This document shows, one piece after another, positions 18-28,032 of a stretch of DNA of 64,000 nt. The notes under the pieces were generated by a model. It made no database searches, was not told the DNA's origin, and was given only the letters and a program-made list of their open reading frames with translations. The DNA is from a virus (taxonomy: Duplodnaviria; Heunggongvirae; Uroviricota; Caudoviricetes): the IMG/VR virus record IMGVR_UViG_3300035494_000066. One strand, 5' to 3'. Position numbers and translations under genes: made by a program. Within the stretch, counting starts at the first letter, position 1; every line of letters starts with the position of its first letter.

Positions 18-93
18 TGGGGTGATGCATGGGACTCGAACCCATATCTGCCGGAGTCACATTCCGGAGCTCTACCATTAAGCTAGCACCACC
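18..93 (-). tRNA. tRNA-His (anticodon GTG), with encoded G-1 and C73
   Basis: Hand-folded cloverleaf on the minus strand. T-arm GGGTTCGAGTCCC, anticodon loop aTGTGAc, 8-bp acceptor with G-1, CCA encoded. Confidence 0.7.
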
Positions 94-229
94 ATAAACT
101 CTCCGTCGACGCCAACAGTATTGCACTGTTGCACGTTTCGTCTCTGAAAAGACTCATCAGGACGGCTGTCTTATTAATGTTTCTATATTATACAGCTGGT
201 ATACTATTATGTCAACTGCATTTTACATT

Positions 230-307
230 TGGCACCCTTTGTAGGATTTGAACCTACGACCTCCGAGTTCGAAGCACGGCGCTCTGGTCCAACTGAGCTA
301 AAAGGGC
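230..307 (-). tRNA. tRNA-Arg (anticodon TCG)
   Basis: Hand fold. Acceptor gcccttt/aaagggt, D-arm agctcagttggaccagagc, anticodon loop cTTCGAa, T-arm gtaggttcaaatcctac, CCA. Confidence 0.65.
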
Positions 308-319
308 ATATTTGTTATG

Positions 320-838
320 TTAATACGATTCGTACTGTAGTGTTTCGAGGTTTAACTTCTTACGCACATCTGTGAAGTACTGACAGTAATGTGTTGGCTT
401 TTTATAAACGCTAAACGCTTTAATAAAAGACATTGCATCGGCTTTGCGATGAAAGAATACAGTCATTGACTGAGTCTCATTTGCTCGGTATTCGGTGTTA
501 CCGATGCACCAGCCTTTTACGTTATCTTCGTCGTTCCGGTCTTTTACATTGCGATCGAGCCACTCTAATACGTGCGGCTTTAGATTTGGCACACAACGAG
601 TGCAGCACTTTGCAACTTCTTCATCAGACACATCAGGGTTAACTGATTGCATTGCAGATTTAAATCGATCAAACCCTTCAGTATCTAGGTATGGCTCTGC
701 GTTTGGATCAACAAGAGCATCCCAATCAGCGATATCAGAATCTACATATCCTTTCCAACTAACAAGATGGCGACAGTGATATACTTTATCATCCCAGTGA
801 CTATGATGACACCAGATGTGATTTTGTAGATAGTTCAT
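320..838 (-). CDS. hypothetical protein (172 aa), His/Cys-rich
   Basis: Long minus-strand ORF on the strand that carries the neighbouring genes. No recognisable domain. Confidence 0.45.
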   Translation of the reverse strand: MNYLQNHIWCHHSHWDDKVYHCRHLVSWKGYVDSDIADWDALVDPNAEPYLDTEGFDRFKSAMQSVNPDVSDEEVAKCCTRCVPNLKPHVLEWLDRNVKDRNDEDNVKGWCIGNTEYRANETQSMTVFFHRKADAMSFIKAFSVYKKPTHYCQYFTDVRKKLNLETLQYESY

Positions 839-2119
839 ACATCCCTCGAGGAAAGTTGTAAATTGACTAGAAATACTGCTGCGCGTGGTTGATTCTAAGA
901 TTTAGCAAGCGTGTACAGTAACATATCGTCGGTGCTGATTTTAACTGTTGTGCTTGCATACACTCTTGATGTTTTTTTGTTTTTCGAATCAACACGATAA
1001 ATTTTAATCGTCTTTTCGTGCGGCAGTGCGGCCACTACATAACATATTGAAATGCTGGCGTAATACGAAGCCCCTACATAGTCACCAGCGGTAATTTCCT
1101 TTCCTAACAGGTCAGTGTGAACATTCATGCTATATTAAGACAATTTGTTAGATTCAAATGCACGTTGTGACATACCGAAGAACATGTAGTGAAACCAACG
1201 TACATCACCGCTCTGGACTTTAATACGAAAACCGTTTTTGACTTTTTCGACAACCTCGTATGATTGTCCGTCAACAAGACCGCTCCATTTAAAATCGTCG
1301 CCGAGCATACGTGACCGTGCAATAATGTTCATATATGTTCTCCTTGACGTTCTAAGTTATGTGTTTATTATAAGACATGTGTTAGTGAAGGTCAATACTT
1401 TTTCTTACTTTAAGTAAGATCGGACGTAAAATCTGGCCTAGTATTCCAATGCTGTATGCATTCGCGCTTGCTATAACCGAGAATGGTAGCAGTGCACCCG
1501 CCGTAATGCTCTTGGCACACTATCTGCCAAAGCTGATTGCCTTCTGCGTCCTTCCTAGAAGCAGGATAAATTGTATCAATTGGGTCTTGATTATTTAGGT
1601 CATTTCCGCAGAACGGGCAAGGTAGCAAGTCGGCCATAGTTACTCATCTTCTAGTAAATCAAATTCAGCATTAAGTACAGTGAATGCATACTTCATTAAT
1701 TTGTGGAACGCAACCGGGTCTTCGTCTACTAAACGATTACCAACAGTCTCCATGTAGTATCCTTCGGAATCTTTCTTAAAGAACGCAATAGTAAAGCAGT
1801 ATTCTTTCATGTCAGGCATTCTCCAGCCTACAATTTCTGCTTCGCGATTCTCTATCCTCCGGAATTCTAAATCACCTACTCTCATATCAATCTGCCTTAA
1901 GTGTTGTTACTTTTGGTAATCGTCTTTTGGCCCAGCTGGGCGCACTGACCGAGATTGGTAATGTTGCTTAGCGTCTTCTCTCGATTTTTGTATGGTTCGC
2001 AACATTTACCGCACTGTATGTCTTTTTGGAGCAATCGCTGCTCTAGTGCTTCAGGAGAACTAAAGTCTTTACTGCTAATGTTTCTACAAATGCAAACTTT
2101 CATTATTATATCTTAAAGT

Positions 2120-2192
2120 TGGTAGCTCTGGGTGGAATCGAACCACCATTGCACGATTATCAGTCGTGTTTTCTACCGTTGAAATACAGAGC
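2120..2192 (-). tRNA. tRNA-Ile (anticodon GAT)
   Basis: Hand fold. Acceptor agctctg/cagagct, anticodon stem cacga/tcgtg, loop cTGATAa, T-arm ggtggttcgattccacc, CCA. Confidence 0.65.
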
Positions 2193-2199
2193 TAGTGAA

Positions 2200-2279
2200 T
2201 GGTGCCCACAGCAGGGGTCGAACCTGCATGTATCCAATTAACCTTTCTACGATTTCGTAGACCGAGGGTATATGTGGGC
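2200..2279 (-). tRNA. tRNA-like element with canonical acceptor and T-arm but irregular D/anticodon region (possible pseudo-tRNA or insert-bearing tRNA)
   Basis: Acceptor gcccaca/tgtgggc, T-arm gcaggttcgacccctgc and CCA are canonical. The 43-nt core contains a perfect ctacg-aaat-cgtag hairpin and no canonical 5-bp/7-nt anticodon arm. Confidence 0.35.
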
Positions 2280-2286
2280 ATTTAAT

Positions 2287-2362
2287 TGGCGACTGTGACG
2301 GGAGTCGAACCCGCACCAGACTGCTAGACAGGCAGTTATCCTTCCCAGAGGATCTCACAGCC
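2287..2362 (-). tRNA. tRNA-Asp (anticodon GTC), copy 1 (unusual T37)
   Basis: Hand fold. Acceptor ggctgtg/cacagtc, D atcc/ggat, anticodon arm actgc-cTGTCta-gcagt, T-arm gcgggttcgactcccgt, CCA. Confidence 0.55.
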
Positions 2363-2420
2363 AGAAACTTGGCCTTAAGCAGGAGCTACGCTCAACTGTA
2401 CTTAAGGTTACAAACTAATA

Positions 2421-2503
2421 TGGTTGGGGCAGTGGGATTCGAACCCGACATGCTCTCGCGACGGTGTTACAGACCGCTTCCTTTCCCAGAAGGAGTTACC
2501 CCA
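2421..2503 (-). tRNA. tRNA-Tyr (anticodon GTA), long variable arm, copy 1
   Basis: 83 nt. Anticodon arm gcggt-cTGTAac-accgt, long variable region. T-stem is weak (3 bp). CCA encoded. Confidence 0.5.
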
Positions 2504-2510
2504 ATTAAGC

Positions 2511-2586
2511 TGGTGCAGCCTCTCGGAATCGAACCGAGTTCTCTAATTCTTCAGACTAGCGTGAGGACCACCTTCACCAAAGCTGC
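2511..2586 (-). tRNA. tRNA-Phe (anticodon GAA), copy 1
   Basis: Hand fold. Acceptor gcagctt/aggctgc, D gtga/tcac, anticodon loop cTGAAga, T-arm ctcggttcgattccgag, CCA. Confidence 0.7.
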
Positions 2587-2591
2587 ATAAT

Positions 2592-2669
2592 TGGTCTCCC
2601 GGGTAGGATTCGAACCTACGACCACTCAGTTCCAAACCGAGTGCGCTAACCAGACTGCGCTACCGAGAG
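2592..2669 (-). tRNA. tRNA-Pro (anticodon TGG), copy 1
   Basis: Hand fold. Acceptor ctctcgg/ccgggag, D gcgc/gcgc, anticodon arm ctcgg-tTTGGaa-ctgag, T-arm gtaggttcgaatcctac, CCA. Confidence 0.65.
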
Positions 2670-2705
2670 TTTGTTCTATACTGATTCTATCAGTACTATT
2701 GTAAT

Positions 2706-2783
2706 TGGTCCGGATTGCAGGATTCGAACCTGCGACCCCTTGCTCCCAAAGCAAGTGCTCTGCACAAACTGAGCTAAACCCGG
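2706..2783 (-). tRNA. tRNA-Pro (anticodon TGG), copy 2
   Basis: Hand fold. Acceptor ccgggtt/aatccgg, D gctc/gagc, anticodon arm cttgc-tTTGGga-gcaag, T-arm gcaggttcgaatcctgc, CCA. Confidence 0.6.
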
Positions 2784-2790
2784 AATAAAA

Positions 2791-2865
2791 TGGTAGCTCC
2801 AACAAGAATCGAACTTGTATTTCACCGTTATCAGCGGTACGTTCTAGCCGTTGAACTATGGAGCT
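2791..2865 (-). tRNA. tRNA-Ile (anticodon GAT), copy 2
   Basis: Hand fold. Acceptor agctcca/tggagct, D gttc/gaac, anticodon arm taccg-cTGATaa-cggtg, T-arm acaagttcgattcttgt, CCA. Confidence 0.65.
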
Positions 2866-2871
2866 ATTATT

Positions 2872-2945
2872 TGGTGGACCGACGGGGAATCGAACCCCGA
2901 TCACTACAGTGCAAGTGTAGTATAATACCGTTATACTATCAGCCC
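2872..2945 (-). tRNA. tRNA-Ala (anticodon TGC) with G3:U70, copy 1
   Basis: Hand fold. Acceptor gggctga/tcggtcc carries a G3:U70 wobble (Ala identity). Anticodon arm ctaca-cTTGCac-tgtag, T-arm cggggttcgattccccg, CCA. Confidence 0.65.
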
Positions 2946-2980
2946 AAAACGTTTAAGTAAACTAATGCTTACTCTTAAAA

Positions 2981-3056
2981 TGGTATCCCGTAGGGGAATC
3001 GAACCCCTGTTAGCAGGTTGAAAACCTGCTGTCCTGACCGACTAGACGAACGGGAC
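2981..3056 (-). tRNA. tRNA-Glu (anticodon TTC), copy 1
   Basis: Strong resemblance to bacterial tRNA-Glu. gtcccgttcgtctag..., 3-bp D stem, anticodon arm gcagg-tTTTCaa-cctgc, T-arm aggggttcgattcccct, CCA. Confidence 0.75.
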
Positions 3057-3148
3057 ATTTAATAGTAACAGGGCAAGTCTACCTCTTGCTGTTAAGCGAA
3101 CTGTTGCACACACGTCAACTCCCCCGAAGGTTTTACAACGCTGTGCTC

Positions 3149-3224
3149 AGCTTATACCTGTTATAAATTGGCGGACCTGACGAGTTTCGATCTCGCTACC
3201 TCGACAGTGACAGTGTCGCGCTCT
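3149..3224 (-). tRNA. tRNA-Asp (anticodon GTC), copy 2 (T-loop has A54)
   Basis: Hand fold. Acceptor ggacctg/caggtcc, D gctc/gagc, anticodon arm cgaca-cTGTCac-tgtcg, T-arm gcgag-atcgaaa-ctcgt, CCA. Confidence 0.6.
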
Positions 3225-3332
3225 CCCGATTGAGCTACAGGTCCTTAAATTCTGACACCTATTCCGGCTTTTACGGCAACGTTTTTATTGCTGCTAGTGC
3301 CCAACAGCATGTTGCTTGATACTTCATGAATT

Positions 3333-3409
3333 TGGTGCAGCGAGTAGGAATTGAACCTACGACACCCTGGGCTTCAACCAAGTGCTCTACCGGACTGAGC
3401 TATCGCTGC
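3333..3409 (-). tRNA. tRNA-Phe (anticodon GAA), copy 2
   Basis: Hand fold. Acceptor gcagcga/tcgctgc, D gctc/gagc, anticodon arm cttgg-tTGAAgc-ccagg, T-arm gtaggttcaattcctac, CCA. Confidence 0.55.
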
Positions 3410-3410
3410 G

Positions 3411-3486
3411 TGGCGTTCCTGCAGGGACTCGAACCCTGTGCTGCGGAGTGAAAACCCGCTGATTTAACCACATAATCGACAGGAAC
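3411..3486 (-). tRNA. tRNA-Glu (anticodon TTC), copy 2
   Basis: Hand fold. Acceptor gttcctg/caggaac, D gatt/aatc, anticodon arm gcggg-tTTTCac-tccgc, T-arm cagggttcgagtccctg, CCA. Confidence 0.6.
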
Positions 3487-3492
3487 AAAAAT

Positions 3493-3568
3493 TGGTAGGA
3501 CCGGGCGGACTTGAACCGCCAACCACCCGCTTAAAAGGCGGATGCTCTAACCATTGAGCTACGATCCT
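3493..3568 (-). tRNA. tRNA-Lys (anticodon TTT)
   Basis: Hand fold. Acceptor aggatcg/cggtcct, D gctc/gagc, anticodon arm tccgc-cTTTTaa-gcggg, T-arm ggcggttcaagtccgcc, CCA. Confidence 0.7.
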
Positions 3569-3570
3569 AA

Positions 3571-3656
3571 TGGCTCCTCGGGTAGGCTTCGAACCTACAA
3601 TGCCTATCGGCGCCTGATTAACAGTCAGGTGACTTTACCAGTTTGTCTACCGAGGA
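3571..3656 (-). tRNA. type-II (long variable arm) tRNA with anticodon GTT; discriminator G73
   Basis: 86 nt. 3-bp D stem with 11-nt D loop, perfect anticodon arm cctga-cTGTTaa-tcagg, 14-nt variable arm, T-arm gtaggttcgaagcctac, CCA. This architecture is normally Ser/Leu/Tyr, not Asn. Confidence 0.5.
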
Positions 3657-3667
3657 ATTTTAAAAAT

Positions 3668-3752
3668 TGGTAGCGAGAGCAGGATTCGAACCTACGAAGC
3701 CATTGGCAATGGGTTATGAGCCCATTCACTTTGTCCGCTTGTATATCTCGCA
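3668..3752 (-). tRNA. type-II (long variable arm) tRNA with anticodon CAT; 1:72 mismatch; discriminator A73
   Basis: 85 nt. 3-bp D stem with 11-nt D loop, perfect anticodon arm atggg-cTCATaa-cccat, 13-nt variable arm, T-arm gtaggttcgaatcctgc, CCA. Confidence 0.5.
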
Positions 3753-3757
3753 ATAAT

Positions 3758-3841
3758 TGGTGGGCCAGGCTGGACTTGAACCAGCAGTGCTTTCGCGTCG
3801 GGTTTACAGCCCGATAGGGTTACCAATTTTCCTACTGACCC
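3758..3841 (-). tRNA. tRNA-Tyr (anticodon GTA), type II, copy 2
   Basis: 84 nt. Acceptor gggtcag/ctggccc, anticodon arm tcggg-cTGTAaa-cccga (canonical Tyr loop), 12-nt variable arm, T-arm gctggttcaagtccagc, CCA. Confidence 0.7.
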
Positions 3842-3891
3842 GTAACTGAAGTAGCTAGATTTGAATCTATAACATACTCCAATGAAAAATT

Positions 3892-3965
3892 TGGTGGAGA
3901 CATGGAGAATCGAACTCCAATCACTACAGTGCAAGTGTAGTATAATACCGTTATACTATATCCCC
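3892..3965 (-). tRNA. tRNA-Ala (anticodon TGC) with G3:U70, copy 2
   Basis: Body is nearly identical to the copy at 2872-2945 (shared ~50-nt core). Acceptor and T-stem differ (ggggata/tgtctcc, tggagttcgattctcca). CCA encoded. Confidence 0.65.
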
Positions 3966-3967
3966 AT

Positions 3968-4043
3968 TGGCTCCCTGGACTGGATTCGAACCAGTAGCGA
4001 CTTGGTTAAAGCCAAGTGCCCCTACCTATAGGGCCCCCAGGGA
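3968..4043 (-). tRNA. tRNA-Lys-like with 6-nt anticodon loop (cTTTaa)
   Basis: All four arms are otherwise canonical: acceptor tccctgg/ccaggga, D gccc/gggc, T-arm actggttcgaatccagt, CCA. The perfect anticodon stem cttgg/ccaag encloses only 6 nt, ctttaa. Confidence 0.45.
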
Positions 4044-4044
4044 A

Positions 4045-4120
4045 TGGTGCTCGGTGATGGAATCAAACCATCCTGAAACTTGCTTGTAAGGCAAGCGCCT
4101 CCTCAATCGGCCAACCGAGC
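4045..4120 (-). tRNA. tRNA-Val (anticodon TAC)
   Basis: Hand fold. Acceptor gctcggt/accgagc, anticodon arm cttgc-cTTACaa-gcaag, T-arm gatggtttgattccatc, CCA. Confidence 0.65.
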
Positions 4121-4124
4121 AGTT

Positions 4125-4200
4125 TGGTTGTAGTGGTGGGATTTGAACCCACAAACCTTCACATTATGAATGTGCTGCTCTACCATTGAGCTACACTACA
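4125..4200 (-). tRNA. tRNA-Met (anticodon CAT), elongator-type (1:72 paired)
   Basis: Hand fold. Acceptor tgtagtg/cactaca, D gctc/gagc, anticodon loop tTCATaa, T-arm gtgggttcaaatcccac, CCA. Confidence 0.65.
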
Positions 4201-4566
4201 ATTACAACTTTCCTAAAATGTTAAAGAGCGTTTGTCTAATTACAGACATTAAAAAAGGGTGCCTTTGCACCCTTTTTATTAAATTCTTTTCTACTTTACG
4301 AGCAAGGGTGCAGTTTCGTAAAGTAATCCTTATAATCGCGAGCGAAGAAAATCTCAGCCACAATCGCAGGGCGAACATTAGCCATCGGCTTAACATTATT
4401 CTCTGCAATGTTGTTATGATTGATTACGTTGTTCATTTCTTGCTCTCTTTAAGTTATGTTGTACAGTATACTACGTTTTTTTCTACTGTCAAGTCTTTTT
4501 GTAAAACTTTTTAAATTTCTTTTTGTTTAACTTTGTAAATTGTATAGTTTTATTTATATCTGTTAA

Positions 4567-4596
4567 CTAAAAAACCAGAACTTTTTTGGTTTTTAA
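4567..4596. terminator. A-run/hairpin/T-run bidirectional terminator-like element (repeat copy 1)
   Basis: Sequence aaaaaacc(a)gaacttttttggttttt. A near-identical copy lies at 6705-6728. Confidence 0.45.
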
Positions 4597-4733
4597 CTAC
4601 TCGGATAACAAAAAGAACACTAATTATGTTGCGTTTGTAACATAGTTAACTAAACTGTTGTTGTGTATACGCTTAGTCTTAAATTGTAATCTATGCATTA
4701 ATTATACAGATTAGTTACACACTGTCAACATAA

Positions 4734-6197
4734 TTATTTCAAATTTTTAATCGGTATTAGTTCGGGATGTGCGCTGTAAAAATCGGTGTTGCGCTTCTGG
4801 TCAAACGACTCAGTGCTAGTTACAAATTTGTGGCTTAGATCATTTCGATTATTAAACTTGCGTAAGAAGTTAGTAACCCAATTTAGCTCAGTGTAGTTAC
4901 TACTCTGATACTTTTCGATTGCTAAATCCCTGAGCCATTGAGGAGCATTAGCTACACTAAACTCTGCAGGATCTGTAACAAAACCCCAAACTAAATTAGC
5001 GTTAAGTGTTTTCGATAGAGACACAACATTGTCTAGATACAATAAATTTTGTGTATTAACAGTAACAGAAAAACTCAACTTAGCATGTGCATTCTGCATG
5101 CAGAACTTAGAAAAATCGTTAAGATTTTCTGCAACTTCGTTCCATTTACCACCGCGTTGGATTTCAAATCGACGACCGACGTCATCGATGCTTGCTATGA
5201 TTTCTATAGATTTGAACCTCTGCAATAGTTGCATAATGTCTGGTTTATACACACTACCGTTTGTGTTGATGCTAATGCTCATGTTGTGTGCTTGCTTTAA
5301 ATCGATTAGCCTTGTTAACAACTTCTCTAAGTTAGGATTAATCAACGGTTCACCGCCTAGTAAGTGAACACTTTCGCAACTGTTGAAATCAATTTTAGAC
5401 AGAAAATCTTCCTCTAGAGGAATTTTCCCAAAGACTTCAAATGCTCTGAGATTGTTTTGTTCTTTAGCAACTCGTGTGCTTGCGTCAGGATTGCATATTC
5501 GACATTTAAAGTTACAAAATGAAGTAGCCGACACAGTTATGTCCCGGAGCTCAATGTTATCAAACCACCGAGTGTTGCAAGCGTGTAAAAACTTTTCAAT
5601 AAACTGTTGCCGTCTGCTAATTGCTCCTTGCTCTTCTTTTCTCCAGCATTCATTGCAGCCTGGGTGCTTAGTATTGCTGCTTATAGCAGCCCTAATCGAA
5701 GCGTACTGACTGTTATCCTCAATTGAGAAATTTCTATCTGTGATAGTAACGCTGTTAGAGTACTCACAGCACGGTTTTGCACTTTTATTGCTGCGAATGT
5801 TAATCATTCCGTACGGTGCAGGACAAAATGTTTCGGATAGTGCTGGGAAAGAGTCTAGCTGTATTGGTGCAGTTATAGTTCCTTCATAATTAACTACTTC
5901 AAAATCGATGTCTGAATAATCAACTATGTTGTTTCTGACGTATTCTATTTCAGCAGTTAAGTCTTGGGGGGTTTCGAGACGAACAAAACACAGTGAAATG
6001 TCGGCACGTAAAGCAGCAAATGCTAAATGGGCAATGTGCTGCCATGTCATCGGGTGCGATGTATATAGGACAATACGCTCGTCTGGTCTAAAATACGGTT
6101 TTGTGATAGCTTGAAAATAACGATACGCAGTTGAGTGTACATCACCTAATACTTCGCTCAAGTCTGCCTTACTAACTATATTAATTTCTGCGGTCAT
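4734..6197 (-). CDS. radical SAM enzyme, SPASM/twitch-type, with N-terminal Cys-rich domain (487 aa)
   Basis: CxxxCxxC motif (CNFKCRIC), GGEPL-like motif, NTNGS motif. N-terminal CxxCW...RRQQ motif is shared with the rSAM at 18300-19610. Confidence 0.75.
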   Translation of the reverse strand: MTAEINIVSKADLSEVLGDVHSTAYRYFQAITKPYFRPDERIVLYTSHPMTWQHIAHLAFAALRADISLCFVRLETPQDLTAEIEYVRNNIVDYSDIDFEVVNYEGTITAPIQLDSFPALSETFCPAPYGMINIRSNKSAKPCCEYSNSVTITDRNFSIEDNSQYASIRAAISSNTKHPGCNECWRKEEQGAISRRQQFIEKFLHACNTRWFDNIELRDITVSATSFCNFKCRICNPDASTRVAKEQNNLRAFEVFGKIPLEEDFLSKIDFNSCESVHLLGGEPLINPNLEKLLTRLIDLKQAHNMSISINTNGSVYKPDIMQLLQRFKSIEIIASIDDVGRRFEIQRGGKWNEVAENLNDFSKFCMQNAHAKLSFSVTVNTQNLLYLDNVVSLSKTLNANLVWGFVTDPAEFSVANAPQWLRDLAIEKYQSSNYTELNWVTNFLRKFNNRNDLSHKFVTSTESFDQKRNTDFYSAHPELIPIKNLK

Positions 6198-6328
6198 AGT
6201 ACCCTAGTGTCGTGAAAGTGCAGTTCGGCGTCAAATCCAAGCAGTCCGATTGTAACTCGAAAACCAGCATGGTCGCACAGTGCGGAAACGTTAACGTCGA
6301 CGCTGACGATTGTTGGTGTTTTGTACAT
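6194..6328 (-). CDS. small ORF (43 aa) translationally coupled to the radical SAM gene (stop overlaps rSAM ATG as ATGA)
   Basis: Hand translation MYKTPTIVSVDVNVSALCDHAGFRVTIGLLGFDAELHFHDTRVL. Weak RBS. Not in the ORF track because it is shorter than 60 aa. Confidence 0.3.
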   Translation of the reverse strand: MYKTPTIVSVDVNVSALCDHAGFRVTIGLLGFDAELHFHDTRVL

Positions 6329-6692
6329 ATTGGCTTCTAGCACTTTGTTAACTTTTGGAAAGCTAAATGCTTTGTGTACAACAGTAGACCAACGGTTAAC
6401 GCCGGGTCTGACAAGTTGGTATTAAACGAAATCATTTGCTCGAATCCTTATACTTTTCGACTGCAGACGCAATGCGTTGCTTAAGGTCTAAATATGATGT
6501 TGAGTAATACTCATCGTCGGCTAAGTACGGAACTGCTACCCGTTCTACAGTCTTCTTAAAAGTCCAGCACATCGACGTAACCAATTCACTCTCACGACTT
6601 AAGCCTCCCATCACGCGAACGTGTAAACATGCTTCTAAAAACTAGCTAGTGTTTCTTTCTTTTTATTTATTATAGTGTCTTTTTGCGTAGTG

Positions 6693-6998
6693 TCAACTAA
6701 AAAACCGAAACTTTTTTGGTTTTTTAACTTCGTTGACTCGAGTCAACAAGCTGTGCAGCACACGTTGATATTTATTATCGCCGTCTAACTCAAAACGTTC
6801 GAGGCGATAGTAAAAATCTCCATCTCGGCGTGTACGAAGCACTTTATCTGCGCACAAGTAGTCTGTGCGATCGGACACATTGCGAAGCACGAAGTCGTAC
6901 ATAGCAGGATCGGATGATCTTTCTACCCGATACACAGATCCTTTAAAGTAGATGTTATTGCCTAGTTGCAAATCGTTAACTACTTTTACATGCATCAT
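6693..6998 (-). CDS. hypothetical protein (101 aa)
   Basis: Minus-strand ORF downstream of a TTGACA-17-TATACT promoter at about 7020-7060. Confidence 0.45.
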   Translation of the reverse strand: MMHVKVVNDLQLGNNIYFKGSVYRVERSSDPAMYDFVLRNVSDRTDYLCADKVLRTRRDGDFYYRLERFELDGDNKYQRVLHSLLTRVNEVKKPKKFRFFS

Positions 6999-7058
6999 GT
7001 CTGTGTCCTTCTTAACGTTTATGTATTAAGTATACAGCCTGTATTGTTGTTGTCAACC

Positions 7059-7700
7059 CTATTTACACGTGATCTTACTAATTTTTTCCACTATGCTTGA
7101 GTATGTAGAAGACGTGTACTCGGAGTCTACTAGATACGGTGTCTCGTATACTTGTACAATCTGTGTAGCTTGTGAAATAAATTGGTCAAACTCGTTAACG
7201 TCGCGGTTCAACATAGTGAATTCTTTGATTAGTTGTCTCAAGGTGTTGTTGTGCTTTACTAATACCTGTTCTAGTTCTTCGAGCTCAGGAAATTGATCCC
7301 AGCTTAGCTCGCTTAGTAATTCGGTAACATAGTGACAACTGTTTGCAACATATCCGTTTAAGAATCTTGACGTGTTCTTGAGTGCAACATTGCAATCTGA
7401 CAGTAAAGTTTCGACGTGTGTGTATTTTTGATCAACAACACGTTGCTTAGAAACAAAGTCTAACGCTACGTATCGGCTTAACATCTTCTTTGTTGTGCAG
7501 AACTTCTTTGTAATAGCTTGTTTAATTAGATCAGTTTTGCCGTCAATTGCATCCACTATTAGCGCAATCTGGTCCTGCTGTTTGACAATAATTGCAGTAG
7601 ATTGTTCAATTACCCGGTCACGTTTTGCAGTAGCAACGTTAATGGCTTCTTTTAGAGAATCAATTTCTGCAGCCGGGACTTTGCGCAAATCAACTTTCAT
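7059..7700 (-). CDS. hypothetical coiled-coil protein (213 aa)
   Basis: Long minus-strand ORF. No domain recognised. Confidence 0.5.
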   Translation of the reverse strand: MKVDLRKVPAAEIDSLKEAINVATAKRDRVIEQSTAIIVKQQDQIALIVDAIDGKTDLIKQAITKKFCTTKKMLSRYVALDFVSKQRVVDQKYTHVETLLSDCNVALKNTSRFLNGYVANSCHYVTELLSELSWDQFPELEELEQVLVKHNNTLRQLIKEFTMLNRDVNEFDQFISQATQIVQVYETPYLVDSEYTSSTYSSIVEKISKITCK

Positions 7701-8520
7701 GAAGTTTCCTTTTTGTGTTTAGTGACATCTGTACTATGGTGAAGTTGACTAGATGCTGAGTTAATCTTTTTGTTAGCAGTAACTTTAATCACTGACGTGT
7801 TAACAAGGACTACAGCAACAGCTATCATCGACGCAGCGTTAATAACAAATATCTCTAGTCCGTATAAAAATAGTTCCACAGCAGCTACTATCTGCTAATC
7901 AGTTGCGTAGTTAATTGTACACATTCGCTGCTAGTGTGTCAATTGAGACCCGGTGAGAGTGGCTCCGAATATAAAGTAGTCAGCGACGAACGTAAGTTCA
8001 GCACCGACGAAACTGATGCGTAGTACCTCCCTGAATAGTTCCACATCTGCTTAATTACAAACTACGCAACTATTACCCGGGCAGTGTAGGCAATGTTACT
8101 GAAGATTAGTGTCGACAGTAACGGTATTTCACTTGCACTAACGACAGCGGCATTATATAATGCCGCTGTCGTACACATAACTTACTTGTGCAGCTATTAA
8201 CACTGCGATATAGTAGTTGGTATACCGATGAATGAAGCGTACAATATGCGCAGTTATAAGCAGTCTGTACGCAACATACACAATGTTTGCAATCACTAAC
8301 TCCATGTTAGTCAGCAACGATACTTTCTTTGTATACAACTGGCTTACCGGTGTGTTGCATAAAGTCTACTAGGTTCCGGTAAGTTACTGGTGTAATTTGT
8401 TTTCGAAGTGCAGTTACTGCAGCTGTCATGTCGTCGCCGATAATCCATTCATACTCGCCGGTTTACCGACTTCTGATTTTCGAGACCAGCGCATTCAACC
8501 ACTCTGCCAACTTGCTAAAT

Positions 8521-8595
8521 TTGGCCTGCCTACCAGGACTCGAACCCGGATTAAAGGAGTAGAAATCCTCTGTGTTATCCGTTACACTATAGGCA
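8521..8595 (-). tRNA. tRNA-Arg (anticodon TCT)
   Basis: Hand fold. Acceptor ctgccta/taggcag, D gtgt/acac, anticodon arm gagga-tTTCTac-tcctt, T-arm ccgggttcgagtcctgg, CCA. Confidence 0.65.
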
Positions 8596-8825
8596 GGTGA
8601 AGTTTTACTTTGTGTGCTGTTTCCAGCGATTTAAATCTCGGAGCAGTTTATCTGCTCGATCAAATACATTTTGTAACATTAACCGTTCGTAGTCAGTTGG
8701 GTCATAACTAGGCGTGCCAACTGTTTCTTCTACTACCGCAGATCGAAGTTCTGCAATTTGAAGCAGCTTGTTGTCAATCCAACTTGTAGTATGGATGCTC
8801 ATTATTACTACTCCTTTTTAATGTA

Positions 8826-8911
8826 TGGTACCGATGAACGGACTCGAACTGTTACGCTATCTCTAGCAGAAGATTTTGAATCTCCTGTGTCTACCATTCC
8901 ACCACATCGGC
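8826..8911 (-). tRNA. tRNA-Leu (anticodon CAA), type II
   Basis: 86 nt. Acceptor gccgatg/catcggt, 3-bp D stem, anticodon arm ggaga-tTCAAaa-tcttc, 15-nt variable arm, T-arm aacagttcgagtccgtt, CCA. Confidence 0.6.
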
Positions 8912-9005
8912 ATAGTATGCGTTTTTACTTATCAGCGTAAGGCCGCACCCCCTGCTAATGAACTTTTTTAACGTAGTGTTCGTCTACGTTCACGGGCGTG
9001 TTGTT

Positions 9006-9186
9006 TGGTGCAAACGACGGGACTCGAACCCGCAATTACAGTTAACAAGGGCATTACTCCTTGCTAGTACAAGATTGGAAAAGCAGTCATCCCGCCTTGA
9101 AACCATGCTCCTGTGCTACTCGCTGTTAGGATTTTACTCCTCACTGTCCTTTTTCAGTGTGCGTATGCCATTTCCGCCACGTTTGC
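9006..9186 (-). ncRNA. tRNA-like RNA: canonical T-arm and 3' acceptor half with CCA, plus a matching 5' acceptor strand 181 nt away (insert of ~105 nt)
   Basis: 3' part gcgggttcgagtcccgt-cgtttgc-a-cca at 9006-9035. The complementary gcaaacg lies at 9180-9186. The interior contains a hairpin cactg-aaaaagga-cagtg. Confidence 0.3.
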
Positions 9187-9196
9187 ATGTTAAAAT

Positions 9197-9270
9197 TGGT
9201 GGGTCTGCCTGGAATCGAACCAGGACCGAGCGGTTATGAGCCGCCTGCTCGACCGTCAAGCTACAGACCC
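9197..9270 (-). tRNA. tRNA with CAT anticodon (Met elongator or Ile2-type; 1:72 paired)
   Basis: Hand fold. Acceptor gggtctg/cagaccc, D gctt/gagc, anticodon arm ggcgg-cTCATaa-ccgct, T-arm cctggttcgattccagg, CCA. Confidence 0.65.
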
Positions 9271-9963
9271 TTAAACTTTATTACTTGCGTAGTATACGCA
9301 TTTTTATTTATTATGTCAAGTATTTTTACATCACACTATACAAGCAGGCGTCTTAGCTGCTCTAGTATTAAAGTAACACCGCATTCTAGACCAACTCGGT
9401 ATAGTTACTTCCTAGACTTCTCTAGTTGACACAATACATGGTCATATAACTGATCGTGTTATATCGCGTCATGTCACTTGCTGTGTGCCGCAGCTATACA
9501 ATGTGATGTAAAAATACGCCTCGCGAAGCGTCACTAGTACCAATTTATCCAGTGATCTCATCTACACCAATGGAGGTCACTGTGATCCGGTGGTAATCGC
9601 CATATGCCTGATCCTGTATTAGGGCACCTGGTTTTACTGGGTTGTAGTTGCCGGTGCTGATCTCCGGCTTGCTGGTTGTGACATCTTAGGTTCCGTTTCA
9701 AACCATACAGCGCTGTATGTACGCGGTTCCCAGCGGCAGTCGGGCCAGCGACCATCTCAAGTCTTGAGATTCTTCGTGCGAGGATAAGTCGCACTTCATC
9801 TCGCGCATCAGCCTGCGCATTTACTACAACTAGAAGCATACTGCTGTTAGTGCTTGTATCGTCCGCACTCTTATACTCAGACAGTCTGCCGCTGCTCTCA
9901 CACCAACTCGCGTATTCTGGCGCAACAGCAATATGCTTGTAGTTTTAGTAAAATACAGTAATC

Positions 9964-10040
9964 TGGTGCCAGTAGTGGGATTCGAACCCACACTTTACAG
10001 AATCTCGACCTGCTACCTCTGCCAATTGGGCTATACTGGC
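9964..10040 (-). tRNA. tRNA-like (type undetermined; possibly degenerate or Leu-GAG-like)
   Basis: Perfect acceptor gccagta/tactggc, T-arm gtgggttcgaatcccac and CCA. D and anticodon arms fold poorly by hand. Confidence 0.35.
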
Positions 10041-10056
10041 TATCTCTTATATTGTT

Positions 10057-10085
10057 ATTGTATTTTCTATGTGCTTTTGTGTCAA
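10057..10085 (-). promoter_or_regulatory. sigma70-like promoter TTGACA-17-TACAAT directed into the tRNA-like element at 10040
   Basis: Minus-strand reading gTTGACAcaaaagcacatagaaaaTACAATaac. Consensus -35 box with 17-bp spacer. Confidence 0.5.
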
Positions 10086-10633
10086 CTACTTTTTGAGAGT
10101 TTTTACTGTTTCTTTTAGCTCGCATTCTTTAATTTTACGGATTGTAATGTAAGCTCCATAAATCATTACTGCTGACATAAACACAATCCCAGCGACACTA
10201 GGAATTACAGTCGACAACGTGTATGGATCGATATTTGGCATAGTTAGTCCTGTTGCAGGTTAGTATAATTTCAGAATGGAAGAATTAGCGCAACAATTGT
10301 GGAATTATACTTGCCTTTGTGCTTAGAGTAGCCTTTTTTAATAGCCTTTTTCTTATCAGTATGTGTAACGGCTTTGTTGTACTTTAATGCATTCTTTGCA
10401 ACGTAGTTTCTGTTATTCATCGTCTATCTCGTTTTTATTTTCTTTTTTGCTATGTTGCTGCTTGAGCTCGTGTGCTTGTTTGATCACTGATGCCTCGCAC
10501 GAAACGTTGATATCTCGCAGTCGAAAACCGCATGCTTGAATGTAGTTAATAGCAGTCCTGTAGTCCATTTGCAGCTCCGTTTAGTTTCTTATTTACCTGA
10601 ATATTATAGCAGAAACAGACTACAGGTCAACCT

Positions 10634-11080
10634 TTAATGTGATTTTTTCTCTTCGTCGTAGACACGTTTCCGCAGTGATGACGAACTAAACGAATGTTCG
10701 CGATCATTGAACACACACTTGTCCATGTGACCTGAGATGTCTTTGCCTGTAAAGTGCTTGGTTTTGTATTCATCGCCAAGAATACGAACATCATAGTCTA
10801 AGCACAGCAACAAGTCGTGCAAATCCTTCTCTGTGTGGTACACAATTGTGTGGTCTACATAACGTGAGGATGCTACTTGTATTTGGCGCTCAACGATCGA
10901 CTGTACTGGCTTATTCTTTGACGGACGATCTGCACTCGGGTCAATTTGGATTGCTACAATCAAATAGTCACAATGTTTCTTTGCGTCCCGGAACATCAAG
11001 TGATGCCCTGCATGACACAGGTCAAACGCACCAGCAGTAATGCCTACAGTCAAATTCTGTCTATTAGGAATGTCGATCAT
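10634..11080 (-). CDS. cytidylyltransferase-family nucleotidyltransferase (TagD / RfaE domain II-like, HxGH)
   Basis: GAFDLCHAGHHLMF (HxGH), DYLIVAIQID, ILGDEY and a C-terminal SSSSLR motif resemble glycerol-3-phosphate cytidylyltransferase. 148 aa. Confidence 0.6.
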   Translation of the reverse strand: MIDIPNRQNLTVGITAGAFDLCHAGHHLMFRDAKKHCDYLIVAIQIDPSADRPSKNKPVQSIVERQIQVASSRYVDHTIVYHTEKDLHDLLLCLDYDVRILGDEYKTKHFTGKDISGHMDKCVFNDREHSFSSSSLRKRVYDEEKKSH

Positions 11081-11409
11081 AAGTCTCTCTCATATTTTTC
11101 AAAAATAGCGATGAACACCAAGTCATCAGAGCTGCTATCGTTGTATACACGGTGGAAAGCGCCATCAGGTATCATAAAAAGAGAACCGCTCTCAACTTGG
11201 TAGAAATCGTTGTCGATTTGTATGCGGCCTGTCCCGGAATGAAAGATGTAAACCTCTTCAAGCCCTGGATGAGAGTGGCCGCGTGTCTGCATCTCAGGAT
11301 GCAATGTTGTTTTTGATACTGTTAGATGATTTAGGAACGTGTTATCTTCGAGTAAGTAAGTCTCGTTGTCTTTGATAACGGTTCCGTTTAAGTTTTGGAT
11401 TGATGTCAT
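11077..11409 (-). CDS. cupin-domain protein (110 aa)
   Basis: GHSHPGLEEVYIFHSGTGRI cupin motif. Start overlaps the upstream gene stop by 4 nt (coupled). Confidence 0.55.
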   Translation of the reverse strand: MTSIQNLNGTVIKDNETYLLEDNTFLNHLTVSKTTLHPEMQTRGHSHPGLEEVYIFHSGTGRIQIDNDFYQVESGSLFMIPDGAFHRVYNDSSSDDLVFIAIFEKYERDL

Positions 11410-11439
11410 ATTAATTGTGTATTATCTTTTTACCCGATA

Positions 11440-12075
11440 CTAAAGTATACTGCTTAGGAAAAGCTGGATATCCAGCTTTTCCTTAGAGCTTGCAGCAACT
11501 ATCTCAATAACCCGGGCGCGACCAACTACTCGCCCGCCGATTTTAAAGCATACACCGCGGTCAGTTTTTTCGATTGCAATTGGAGTTTTACGAGGGTTGC
11601 TGCCGCGGCTGTAAATGGTCATAGCAGCCGAACCGCCTTTTTGTACAGCTTCTTTCACAGCATTAACTGCAGCAGCAGCCTGCTTTGCACCAACTTCTAC
11701 ATCTGCATCAATTGCAGCTTGTTCAGCGTCACGCGCTGCAGCGTATTCGGCTTCTTTTTTAGCCCGGAACTCTGCATGCATTTTGCCTAGCTTGTCTAAG
11801 TCAATTGCTGCTGCAACTTCGGTGATTTCTTTAACTGCGTCAGCAAAATAAGAATATGCTTCAACATCGGACTCTACTTCTTTAGTGTCGCGTCCACCGG
11901 AAGAAACTGAAATTTCACAAGACCATTTCTCATCGCCGAACCCTACTGGACGAATATACAACCGGATCACGTCCGACCAAAAGCCTTTTACTTTTACTGA
12001 AACAGTTGGACGGGATTCAACAAGTTCTTCGTAGCTCGGAACAGAGTAAGAGTAGTTGTTGCTCATTTCTATCAC
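11440..12075 (-). CDS. hypothetical protein with Ala/Glu-rich central region (211 aa)
   Basis: Minus-strand ORF preceded by the TATAAT-leader promoter motif at 12083-12105. Confidence 0.5.
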   Translation of the reverse strand: MIEMSNNYSYSVPSYEELVESRPTVSVKVKGFWSDVIRLYIRPVGFGDEKWSCEISVSSGGRDTKEVESDVEAYSYFADAVKEITEVAAAIDLDKLGKMHAEFRAKKEAEYAAARDAEQAAIDADVEVGAKQAAAAVNAVKEAVQKGGSAAMTIYSRGSNPRKTPIAIEKTDRGVCFKIGGRVVGRARVIEIVAASSKEKLDIQLFLSSIL

Positions 12076-12144
12076 CTCAGTCGCTTAACTTATGCTTGTA
12101 TTATAGCACCGAGTGATACGAATGCAAGTGGTTTTTGCAATTAT

Positions 12145-12414
12145 CTAATTCTTTTCAACTAACTCAAGCAGTACGGATAGTCCGTGTGGGTTAGTTCCGT
12201 GCACAGTCCAGCGCTGACTTATGTCGTTAACGTTAATGCGGGCGTCTAACTCGTACGACACACTGTCAGACATTGTTACAACAAGCTTACAATATGCATT
12301 GTCGACTTTTTGAAACCCAGAAACATTAACGCTGTTGATTGTTAGCTCAGGACTGGTTGGCTTTCTTCTTTTGTACCAACTTTGCGGCATTACTTTAAAT
12401 GTGTATTCGGACAT
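12145..12414 (-). CDS. hypothetical protein (89 aa)
   Basis: Minus-strand ORF in the gene array. Confidence 0.4.
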   Translation of the reverse strand: MSEYTFKVMPQSWYKRRKPTSPELTINSVNVSGFQKVDNAYCKLVVTMSDSVSYELDARINVNDISQRWTVHGTNPHGLSVLLELVEKN

Positions 12415-12432
12415 TTAGTACCTTGTACAGCA

Positions 12433-12780
12433 CTACAACACCTTTAGTAATTTGAGTGCGTTTTTAGTTAATTGAACGTATGTGTAGTTTGTCGAGTACG
12501 GCTTGAACCCGTTGTACCGCTTCGTGGGAGAACTGAGTGATTCTCGTATACGGACTAAGTATCCTGTTTTGATTAGTTTTTGGAAATCTGCATCTCGGTT
12601 AATGACAAAGCAGTATCTGCGATTAACGGGTATTCGGAGATCACGACCGTAATCGTTAATGAACTTGAGTATAGCGTAGCGTCGAGGTTGACCCGACGAC
12701 ATTTGGCATATTTTGCGAAACGCTTCTGCTTTTGTTTCAACATGTATCGATTGGTTGAATGTCTTTTGCAAGTGCTTCAT
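12433..12780 (-). CDS. hypothetical basic protein (115 aa)
   Basis: Minus-strand ORF. Lys/Arg-rich. Confidence 0.4.
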   Translation of the reverse strand: MKHLQKTFNQSIHVETKAEAFRKICQMSSGQPRRYAILKFINDYGRDLRIPVNRRYCFVINRDADFQKLIKTGYLVRIRESLSSPTKRYNGFKPYSTNYTYVQLTKNALKLLKVL

Positions 12781-12794
12781 ACTATACTCGAAAT

Positions 12795-12870
12795 TGGCAG
12801 GTCGGGCGAGATTCGAACTCGCAACCTTGGTGTTTGGAGCACCCTGTTCTGCCGTTGGAACTACCGACCT
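12795..12870 (-). tRNA. tRNA-Trp (anticodon CCA)
   Basis: Hand fold. Acceptor aggtcgg/ccgacct, D gttc/gaac, anticodon loop cTCCAaa, T-arm gcgagttcgaatctcgc, CCA. Confidence 0.65.
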
Positions 12871-13057
12871 ATTTTTCTGTTATATCGAACTGACGCGTAG
12901 TATTTACACGTCTTAGCATACGAACTGTCGCTGTGACAGCTGTAATCTGCTTTAATGCACAACCCGTTTCGTGTAGTGCCCCAGTCCTTTATGCGAATAA
13001 AGTTAGTGCAGTTCCCACATGTTCTTCCAGTTGGCATATACATTTACTCTAAAATTG

Positions 13058-13131
13058 GCAGGGGTACCAAGAATTGAACTTGGACCACTGGAGTCAAAGG
13101 CCAGTGCTCTACCATTAAGCTATACCCCTAA
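13058..13131 (-). tRNA. tRNA-Gln (anticodon TTG)
   Basis: Hand fold. Acceptor aggggta/tacccct, D gctt/gagc, anticodon loop cTTTGac, T-arm ccaagttcaattcttgg, CCA. Confidence 0.65.
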
Positions 13132-13136
13132 ATTTG

Positions 13137-13211
13137 GAGGCGTGTGTGGGAATCTAACCCACAAAAACATGATTTGCAGTCATGCCCGTTAACATTCCGG
13201 CAACACGCCAA
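13137..13211 (-). tRNA. tRNA-Cys (anticodon GCA), U73
   Basis: Hand fold. Acceptor ggcgtgt/acacgcc, anticodon arm catga-cTGCAaa-tcatg, T-arm gtgggttagattcccac, discriminator T, CCA. Confidence 0.6.
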
Positions 13212-27744: not shown

Positions 27745-28032
27745 TCAGTATCCCTGTGAATCCTTGATTAGTTCTAGTCGTTCTACTGCTTCGGTGTACA
27801 TGGTTGTCCCTTCTTTGTAAGTCGACAGAATTTCGGCAATGTGTTTGTATTCACGCGCTAATCGCGAAGCGGTATTGCACCAGTCGGCGAGTTCGTCGTA
27901 TGTAGGACAGACCATATACTTATTGCAGCTAGCAGTCTCAACGCCATTTGTTACATGAGCGTATCGAGCCTCTTGTCCGCAATTGCATTTCATCATGAAA
28001 ATTTCCTCTCGTGTTCCATTCGTCGCAAGCAC
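27745..28032 (-). CDS. small Cys-rich zinc-ribbon protein (95 aa)
   Basis: CNCG...CNKYMVCP...WCN cysteine pattern. Confidence 0.4.
   Translation of the reverse strand: MLATNGTREEIFMMKCNCGQEARYAHVTNGVETASCNKYMVCPTYDELADWCNTASRLAREYKHIAEILSTYKEGTTMYTEAVERLELIKDSQGY

Follow-up and report, generated by a model that had tools for sequence, protein, structure and literature searches.

In bacteria, a long variable arm is by textbook rule reserved for the leucine, serine, tyrosine and selenocysteine (Sec) tRNAs, and it is treated as a mark of their identity. Two adjacent tRNA genes on the minus strand of a 64,000-nucleotide (nt) stretch of the virus record IMGVR_UViG_3300035494_000066 (IMG/VR) combine this class II shape with the anticodons GUU and CAU. 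We refer to the whole stretch, which covers part of a phage genome, as the window, and coordinates are those of the window unless another locus is named. The two genes are called tRNA 1 (GUU) and tRNA 2 (CAU). The question raised by the locus is whether the identity of such tRNAs follows their shape or their anticodon. An earlier note on this DNA had proposed that they could be charged by seryl-tRNA synthetase (SerRS) and leucyl-tRNA synthetase (LeuRS), leading to missense decoding of Asn codons as Ser and of Met codons as Leu. Our analysis points the other way: both genes are quite likely functional phage tRNAs whose identity matches their anticodon, on a class II body.

Structure and position of the two genes

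ARAGORN called tRNA 1 as tRNA-Asn(gtt) and tRNA 2 as tRNA-Met(cat), and both genes scored above the gathering score of 29 for the Rfam tRNA model (54.7 and 44.0 bits, respectively). Each has a 3-base-pair (bp) D stem, an 11-nt D loop, a fully paired 5-bp anticodon stem and a 7-nt anticodon loop with U33, and the acceptor/T-stem branch is 7/5 in both. The variable arms are 14 nt (tRNA 1) and 13 nt (tRNA 2), and the discriminators at position 73 (N73) are G73 and A73. The earlier note had read the same lengths, arms, anticodons and discriminators from the letters; the parse returned all of them, and ARAGORN kept the GUU and CAU anticodons for both genes. The Levitt pair is intact, as A15:U48 in tRNA 1 and G15:C48 in tRNA 2, and the elements used in decoding and charging are kept in both: the encoded CCA, the discriminator, U33, A37, the T loop, G18G19 and the Levitt pair. 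A single-sequence minimum free energy fold of tRNA 1, in which the D and anticodon regions are mispaired, was dropped because covariation supports the cloverleaf (see below). Spacing around the genes is tight, with a tRNA-Lys 2 nt away, a gap of 11 nt between tRNA 1 and tRNA 2, and a tRNA-Tyr 5 nt away. The features are listed in Table 1.

Table 1. Features of the two long-arm tRNA genes and their surroundings in the window.
Feature	Position	Strand	Basis
tRNA 1: predicted class II-shaped tRNA-Asn(GUU), 86 nt with encoded CCA; U1-A72, G73, A15:U48	3571..3656	-	ARAGORN, Rfam, positional parse, covariation (12 relatives)
tRNA 1, minus-strand parse: UCCUCGG-UA-GAC-AAACUGGUAAA-GUC-A-CCUGA-CUGUUAA-UCAGG-CGCCGAUAGGCAUU-GUAGG-UUCGAAG-CCUAC-CCGAGGA-G-CCA		-	
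tRNA 1 anticodon GUU, loop CUGUUAA	3620..3622	-	parse
tRNA 1 variable arm CGCCGAUAGGCAUU: 1 nt, 3-bp stem, GAUA loop, 3 unpaired nt	3599..3612	-	parse; Tyr-type geometry
tRNA 2: predicted class II-shaped initiator-type tRNA-Met(CAU), 85 nt with encoded CCA	3668..3752	-	ARAGORN, Rfam, parse, family statistics, covariation
tRNA 2, minus-strand parse: UGCGAGA-UA-UAC-AAGCGGACAAA-GUG-A-AUGGG-CUCAUAA-CCCAU-UGCCAAUGGCUUC-GUAGG-UUCGAAU-CCUGC-UCUCGCU-A-CCA		-	
tRNA 2 anticodon CAU, loop CUCAUAA (as in E. coli tRNA-fMet)	3716..3718	-	parse
tRNA 2 variable arm UGCCAAUGGCUUC: 1 nt, 3-bp stem, 3-nt loop, 3 unpaired nt; 3' CUUC as in E. coli tRNA-Tyr	3696..3708	-	
Class II tRNA-Tyr(GUA), genuine; 5 nt upstream of tRNA 2	3758..3841	-	ARAGORN, parse
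tRNA array holding tRNA 1 and tRNA 2: 29 ARAGORN calls, encoded CCA in all	18..13209	-	

Predicted asparagine identity of tRNA 1

Judged by its sequence, tRNA 1 would be an ordinary tRNA-Asn in all but shape, since it combines the acceptor stem, anticodon loop and G73 of tRNA-Asn with a variable arm of Tyr type and not of Ser type. The E. coli tRNA-Asn (asnT/U/V/W), the sequence of which was checked against 5,425 genomes, has the same CUGUUAA anticodon loop, G73 and U1-A72. The acceptor stems differ in a single pair, UCCUCGG/CCGAGGA in tRNA 1 versus UCCUCUG/CAGAGGA in E. coli, the other 6/7 being identical. A first pair U1-A72 is typical of bacterial tRNA-Asn and is a determinant for the amidotransferase GatCAB; it is found in tRNA 1 and throughout its subfamily (12/12 members). 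The differences from the E. coli molecule lie in the body: tRNA 1 has the 3-bp D stem and 11-nt D loop, a 14-nt instead of a 5-nt variable region, and A15:U48, and it lacks the class I layout of a 4-5-nt variable loop and a 4-bp D stem. To our knowledge, tRNA shape is not a determinant for asparaginyl-tRNA synthetase (AsnRS). The anticodon and G73 suffice to transplant Asn identity into another tRNA body (PMC9976931).

Relatives were collected by a pattern scan of IMG/VR from which 5-nt variable loops were excluded, with ARAGORN and the positional parser applied to the matches. This gave at least 95 distinct long-arm GUU tRNAs in viral contigs. Among the matches listed, to which the fractions in this paragraph refer, G73 is present in 89/95 (94%) and U1-A72 in 69/95, and the CUGUUAA loop is unchanged in 94/95. 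Short-arm canonical Asn tRNAs from the same contigs have a similar profile (G73 in 51/55). The acceptor and discriminator profile of the long-arm GUU tRNAs differs from those of the Ser, Tyr and Leu tRNAs on these contigs: the Ser tRNAs have G2-C71 in 71/74 (96%) and A3-U70 in 64/74 (86%), and A73 is found in 45/46 Tyr tRNAs and 75/76 Leu tRNAs. When the acceptor stem and N73 of tRNA 1 were compared with about 1,900 phage tRNAs, 32 of the 37 nearest neighbours were Asn tRNAs, both long and short.

We propose that tRNA 1 is an elongator tRNA-Asn, which would be transcribed together with the other array members and matured at the CCA end that its gene encodes. For charging, AsnRS of the host would recognise G34-U35-U36 and G73; where a host has no AsnRS, a non-discriminating aspartyl-tRNA synthetase together with GatCAB, which uses U1-A72, could serve instead. 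The product would decode AAY as Asn.

A further Asn-like gene is present at 3968-4043 (minus strand). ARAGORN reported it as "tRNA-???", with a 6-nt anticodon loop (CUUUAA), an acceptor stem UCCCUGG/CCAGGGA, G73, and G8G9 in place of U8A9. Its acceptor stem, G73 and T arm are close to those of E. coli tRNA-Asn, and it looks like a canonical-shaped tRNA-Asn that lost G34 and decayed. If so, the window would have no intact Asn tRNA besides tRNA 1. The remark in the earlier note that the window lacks canonical Ser and Asn tRNAs agrees with the ARAGORN calls, although this Asn-like type I gene is present.

Predicted initiator identity of tRNA 2

The first and last acceptor bases of tRNA 2 form a UxU mismatch, a feature that had escaped the earlier note. 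An unpaired 1:72 position belongs to the bacterial initiator hallmarks, as listed in PMC9976931, and the same source gives CAU alone as sufficient for methionyl-tRNA synthetase (MetRS). The unpaired 1:72 is the chief determinant of formylation and keeps EF-Tu from binding; G2-C71, C3-G70, G4-C69 and A73 contribute to formylation as minor determinants, and a purine11:pyrimidine24 pair also belongs to the set. Compared with a verified E. coli tRNA-fMet (metZ/W/V/Y), the initiator set of tRNA 2 is complete: the two have in common the CUCAUAA loop, the unpaired 1x72, G2-C71, C3-G70, G4-C69, A73, A11:U24 and G29-31:C39-41 (anticodon stem AUGGG/CCCAU in tRNA 2). tRNA 2 departs from it in its mismatch (UxU rather than CxA), its 13-nt variable arm and its D stem of 3 bp.

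Within the lineage of tRNA 2, position 1:72 is UxU, CxU or CxA, and 0/6 distinct sequences have a standard pair there. Both bases vary and yet never pair, a pattern that marks selection for a mismatch. G2-C71 and C3-G70 are unvaried in 9/9 relatives. The UxU form is also the commonest 1:72 mismatch of short-arm phage initiators (14/24). The other two CAU tRNAs of the window have a paired 1:72, lack GGG/CCC and are elongator or Ile2-like, leaving tRNA 2 as the sole initiator candidate in the window. We rejected a reading of tRNA 2 as a lysidine-bearing tRNA-Ile2 because its acceptor stem is that of an initiator and 1x72 is mismatched; the CAU tRNA at 9197-9270, with the stem GGCGG/CCGCU, is a better candidate for that role.

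Two scans of IMG/VR were made for long-arm CAU genes, and together they found dozens at least in viral contigs. The first required the GGG/CCC feature; the second, unbiased scan did not, and was the one used to assess it. Among the matches listed from the unbiased scan, the acceptor is of initiator type in 31/61 long-arm CAU tRNAs, and A11:U24 accompanies it in 20/31. The remainder are elongator Met- or Ile2-like, mostly with C11:G24.

In form, tRNA 2 would be a Tyr-type core with the acceptor end and anticodon arm of an initiator. Its best full-length BLAST matches in the database are phage tRNA-Tyr genes, and it shares with E. coli tRNA-Tyr 9/11 D-loop positions, the 1+3+3+3+3 layout of the variable arm with its 3' CUUC, G15:C48 and the T loop UUCGAAU. 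The arm geometry is shared by tRNA 1. In neither molecule are A73 and U35, the Tyr identity set (PMC9976931), found together: tRNA 1 has U35 but G73, tRNA 2 has A73 but A35, and the acceptor stems are Asn-like and fMet-like, respectively.

As an initiator, tRNA 2 would be charged by host MetRS through CAU, formylated by methionyl-tRNA formyltransferase through the unpaired 1x72, G2-C71, C3-G70, G4-C69, A73 and A11:U24, and sent to the ribosomal P site by its three anticodon-stem G-C pairs. No synthetase or formyltransferase was found among 40 open reading frames of the window that were searched; host enzymes would therefore have to charge both tRNAs. Charging, formylation and use in translation are thus what we infer from these determinants.

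An initiator-like tRNA with a different anticodon occurs on a 258-kb contig binned with Methyloprofundus (L309:3686-3760). It has C1xA72, a CGCGGGG acceptor strand and the GGG/CCC stem, together with the anticodon CAC (loop CUCACAA), which would pair with GUG. Its surroundings, an array of 26 tRNAs, include a close homologue of tRNA 1 and a tRNA-Asn of canonical form.

Covariation and selection on the folds

Three alignments were used, comprising the tRNA 1 subfamily (12 sequences), the tRNA 2 relatives (9 sequences) and the lineage of tRNA 2 itself (7 distinct sequences). Standard pairs occupy 97%, 90% and 92.5% of the paired cells, respectively, and both sides of the pair have changed at 17/23, 12/22 and 8/23 pairs. 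The covariation score was reached by 0/500 shuffles in each of the three. Compensatory changes are seen in each of the five helices of the tRNA 1 subfamily, among them the 3-bp D stem and all three pairs of the variable arm, and pairing drops to 25-44% when the partner columns are slid. In the tRNA 2 lineage, two of the three variable-arm stem pairs show compensatory changes. The alignment of tRNA 2 relatives mixes subfamilies with differing D-arm layouts, making its 63% paired D stem uninformative; the lineage alignment has a single D-arm layout, with a D stem that was fixed by the search pattern. The cloverleaf folds of both tRNAs are thus far beyond chance. Taken together, the persistence of both designs across very different phages with compensatory changes in every helix, the long form as the frequent sole Asn tRNA (see below) and the retained 1x72 mismatch indicate that purifying selection probably acts on working molecules.

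Occurrence in other phages and genomes

The designs were found across Acinetobacter and Pseudomonas phages and in uncultured marine and soil contigs. A BLAST search at greater distance revealed tRNA-Asn genes of 86 and 83 nt in Acinetobacter phage Acibel004 and in the Pseudomonas phiPsa374 group. In the phiPsa374 homologue of tRNA 1 (L002:1510-1596), which comes directly after a canonical tRNA-Asn, one additional U bulges from the 5' acceptor strand. For a common subfamily of long-arm initiators, BLAST against GenBank phages gave an unannotated 735-kb uncultured phage as the sole match. Eight more members of the tRNA 2 subfamily were found in a metagenome scan, each inside a tRNA array. Among the matches listed, 19/36 large arrays with a long-arm Asn tRNA have no canonical Asn tRNA, and 17/36 have both forms.

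The GUU pattern is rare in cellular genomes: a search of the genomes of 185,579 species gave only 54 stretches, about eight of them false positives. The latter, from Candidatus Peribacteria, were discarded: they are normal tRNA-Ser(UGA) genes, and the pattern had matched across their anticodon stem and arm. The true matches lie mostly in dense arrays of 10-29 tRNAs per 8 kb, and these look phage-derived. The 258-kb contig binned with a Methyloprofundus metagenome-assembled genome, mentioned above, carries a copy 88.6% identical to tRNA 1.

In GenBank, such genes are annotated as plain tRNA-Asn or as pseudogenes. Full-text literature searches, whose coverage lies outside subscription-only papers, gave no description of a long-arm Asn or initiator tRNA, and returned allo-tRNAs, (8/4) tRNAs and anticodon-loop escape variants instead. 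Class II-shaped Asn and initiator tRNAs thus seem not to have been described before.

Long arms on other isoacceptors

The long arm is not restricted to these two anticodons. Long-arm Thr(UGU), Cys(GCA), Trp(CCA), Lys(UUU) and Ile(GAU/UAU) tRNAs and a few Asp tRNAs occur in viral loci L003-L259 (e.g., L014, L007, L018, L028 and L035). Among the matches listed, which are the basis of all counts in this paragraph, N73 is the cognate one each time: U73 in 15/16 Cys and 15/17 Thr, G73 in 9/9 Trp and 5/5 Asp, and A73 in 11/11 Lys and 10/10 Ile tRNAs. The long-armed set is enriched for tRNAs reading ANN and UNN codons, and long-arm forms of Ala, Gln, Phe, Gly and Arg tRNAs are nearly absent. The reverse change is seen in Leu tRNAs from viral contigs, which are short-armed in 14/62 cases for Leu(UAA) and in 21/55 for Leu(UAG). 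Since short-arm Leu tRNAs are this common, phages would appear both to add and to remove the arm. Together with the cognate N73 throughout, this suggests that the long arm of phage tRNAs is decoupled from identity, which follows the anticodon.

A short-arm Leu tRNA is also present in the window, at 9964-10040 (minus strand). This tRNA-Leu(GAG) has A73, a variable loop of just 5 nt and, in its anticodon loop UCGAGAU, the unusual base C33.

Possible reasons for the class II scaffold

The weakest step of our proposal concerns what the scaffold is for. Its most likely effect would be to make the tRNAs poor substrates for host tRNA-cleaving defences or for other shape-reading enzymes. This guess derives from the overlap between the long-armed isoacceptors and the known targets of tRNA-cutting defences. 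The PARIS effector AriB depletes Lys(UUU), Thr(UGU) and Asn(GUU) tRNAs, and tRNAs of phage T5 rescue infection (PMC12409363); VapC-LT2 cleaves the initiator tRNA (PMC10264068). All of these isoacceptors occur in long-armed form in phages. Escape from shape-reading nucleases is a tentative explanation of the scaffold, which we would not call probable. In a broader version, the identity sets of Asn, initiator Met, Thr(UGU), Lys(UUU), Cys, Trp and Ile tRNAs would have been moved repeatedly to a class II scaffold as structural camouflage; this we regard as slightly more doubtful still. The long arm and 3-bp D stem would then hide the tRNAs from PARIS-, VapC- or colicin-like nucleases, or from a phage nuclease that clears host tRNA. 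Charging of camouflaged tRNAs would be unimpaired, since the synthetases concerned recognise nothing but the anticodon and the acceptor end.

The scaffold may also stem from simple remoulding, by recombination with the tRNA-Tyr or tRNA-Leu genes of the array. The neighbouring tRNA-Tyr(GUA) (Table 1) is a possible donor.

Alternative interpretations

Of the alternatives to functional tRNAs with anticodon-matched identity, the one that survives best holds that the genes are decaying or neutral by-products of array shuffling, in which Tyr/Leu-type D and variable arms were joined to Asn or fMet acceptor and anticodon arms, the long arm being non-adaptive. The Tyr-like D loop and variable arm of tRNA 2, its best matches to phage tRNA-Tyr and the genuine tRNA-Tyr 5 nt away fit this picture, as do the pseudogene label on the phiPsa374 copy, the odd genes of the array (the 6-nt loop at 3968-4043 and the C33 at 9964-10040) and the existence of short-arm Leu tRNAs in phages. 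A chimeric origin is, however, compatible with working tRNAs and does not make the genes non-functional. The designs persist in very different phages, where all helices, the variable stem among them, show compensatory changes; 19/36 large arrays among the matches listed have no Asn tRNA other than the long form; and the 1x72 mismatch is retained while its bases change. We therefore consider non-functional by-products improbable.

Somewhat less probable again is missense decoding, as proposed in the earlier note, in which SerRS would charge tRNA 1 on account of its long arm and G73, and LeuRS would charge tRNA 2 on account of A73 and tertiary features, so that AAY would be read partly as Ser and AUG as Leu. 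Both tRNAs are indeed long-armed, with the discriminators named, and the ARAGORN calls of the window include no tRNA-Ser. A minority of the long-arm GUU tRNAs listed from viral contigs are Ser-like, with G1-C72, a GCCGAGUGG D arm and arms of 17-19 nt. Nematode nev-tRNAs reportedly provide a precedent. Another is given by the allo-tRNAs (PMC5389517), and the anticodon is not read by SerRS or by E. coli LeuRS (PMC9976931).

The determinants themselves argue against it. The bacterial tRNA-Ser pairs G1-C72 and G2-C71 are conserved (PMC9976931), whereas tRNA 1 has U1-A72 and C2-G71. By a simple hairpin heuristic, both variable arms are of Tyr type, with a 3-bp stem followed by three unpaired 3' nt; Ser arms mostly have 4-7 bp, and in Ser and Leu arms mostly one unpaired nt follows the stem. 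The E. coli-type LeuRS determinants are A73 and an A15-U48 Levitt pair (PMC9976931), and 15:48 is A:U in 128/132 long-arm phage Leu tRNAs. Neither gene has both: tRNA 2 has A73 but G15:C48, and tRNA 1 has A15:U48 but G73. The 1x72 mismatch would furthermore bar tRNA 2 from elongation, and the complete cognate identity sets would compete strongly for AsnRS and MetRS. In alignments with homologues from Vibrio phage Va1, a small sample of two proteins, AAY codons fall on Asn at 22/52 positions and on Ser at 2/52, which gives no hint of AAY reassignment in that sample. With the Ser and Leu determinants missing, the cognate sets complete, N73 tracking the anticodon in all long-arm isoacceptors and AAY aligning with Asn, we consider the missense proposal quite unlikely.

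Least probable of all is that the genes encode non-translational mimics acting as decoys or inhibitors of host nucleases, modification enzymes or toxins: phage tRNAs have been implicated in counter-defence (PMC10264068, PMC11555353) and the window encodes further counter-defence genes, but all charging and decoding elements are conserved, and a decoy needs neither a cognate acceptor identity nor a preserved initiator mismatch.

Several points weigh against functional tRNAs of cognate identity. The identity rules that we applied come mainly from E. coli and may not be those of the phage host; topoisomerase II of the window is at most 43% identical to that of Vibrio phage Va1, the nearest cultured phage. 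What chance of mischarging remains stems mainly from the host and its synthetases, whose requirements may differ. A long arm and G73 are enough for human SerRS, and a relaxed bacterial SerRS could partly mischarge tRNA 1, which has in addition A15:U48 and a Leu-like D loop, though not the crucial A73. The AAY comparison is small, as noted. Among the long-arm initiator-type tRNAs listed from the unbiased scan, the GGG/CCC rule is often relaxed to two G-C pairs; phage initiators may for this reason not obey every E. coli rule. The phiPsa374 record labels its homologue of tRNA 1 "tRNA-Pseudo-GTT", and this copy may be a decaying or a tolerated variant; some other copies may be decaying as well. 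As for the scaffold, the defence-evasion argument is drawn from the overlap of isoacceptor lists, and one defence system, Septu, is reported to cut tRNA-Tyr in its variable loop (PMC13096335).

Comparison with known systems

Bodies of class II shape with anticodons outside Leu, Ser and Tyr have been described before. Like tRNA 1 and tRNA 2, the allo-tRNAs and (8/4) tRNAs are natural bacterial or phage molecules found in metagenomes (PMC5389517). They differ in having 8/4 or 9/3 branches, Sec-like D arms and Ser (or Ala) identity, and they act as missense or nonsense suppressors; the two tRNAs described here have a 7/5 branch and cognate identity sets. The nematode nev-tRNAs are eukaryotic long-arm tRNA-Gly(CCC) and tRNA-Ile(UAU) that are said to be charged with Leu by LeuRS against their anticodon. 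They have in common with the window tRNAs a class II body and a non-Leu/Ser/Tyr anticodon, whereas here the acceptor identity agrees with the anticodon. All described initiator tRNAs that we know of are class I. With regard to phage-host conflict, the T5 tRNA-Lys, -Thr and -Asn that counter PARIS and the anticodon-loop variants that counter VapC or PrrC show that phages likewise encode isoacceptors depleted by defences, including Asn(GUU) and the initiator. The phage tRNA escapes described so far are anticodon-loop or stem substitutions, with no reported change of tRNA class.

The earlier note had alternatively suggested novel identity sets. The body is indeed unexpected, but the identity sets themselves are known ones. 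The architecture is both unexpected and widespread, and the function would be ordinary if our prediction holds. That a class II body carries the complete identity set of Asn or of initiator Met in many unrelated phages implies that the arm is uncoupled from identity. If the tRNAs are charged as predicted, AsnRS, MetRS, formyltransferase, the initiation factors IF2 and IF3 and the P site would all accommodate a naturally occurring long arm; annotation pipelines that call these genes pseudogenes or mismatches would be misreading a real class, as with the phiPsa374 "Pseudo" label; and a concrete question would be raised about phage-host conflict over tRNAs. If camouflage were true, it would be a new counter-defence principle, and tRNA 2 the first natural class II initiator tRNA. 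Long-armed tRNAs of this kind could also serve as a natural chassis for tRNA engineering, offering orthogonal-looking bodies with standard identities.

Genome context

The window belongs to a divergent T4-like phage. A split topoisomerase II, a DNA ligase and an RNA ligase are among the products it encodes, and megablast of the tRNA array against GenBank phages matched only a tRNA-Phe, with no close cultured relative.

A GTP cyclohydrolase I and three radical-SAM proteins are encoded at 16383-17054, 4734-6197, 18300-19610 and 45359-46225 (all on the minus strand), one of the radical-SAM genes lying between tRNA clusters. This set may represent a 7-deazaguanine pathway (preQ0/queuosine-type), which would bear on G34 of GUN anticodons or on DNA modification. 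An RNA ligase (PHA02142 OB fold and RNA_ligase domain) is encoded at 41246-42259, and a homologue of the CBASS inhibitor Acb3 (anti-CBASS) at 27993-28751 (both on the minus strand); they are equipment for counter-defence, and possibly for tRNA repair, within the same 64 kb as the array. The genes at 34857-36476 and 37165-38076 (minus strand) encode a NAMPT-like nicotinamide phosphoribosyltransferase and a PRPP-synthetase-like protein, which form a NAD salvage module, presumably of the kind known from KVP40-type vibriophages.

Many isoacceptors are duplicated within the array: besides tRNA-Ala(UGC), there are pairs for Pro, Ile, Phe, Glu, Asp and Tyr. The Ala genes, at 2872-2945 and 3892-3965 (minus strand), have identical D and anticodon arms and different acceptor and T stems. 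This pattern suggests segmental exchange between members of the array, a process that would be able to create chimeric bodies.

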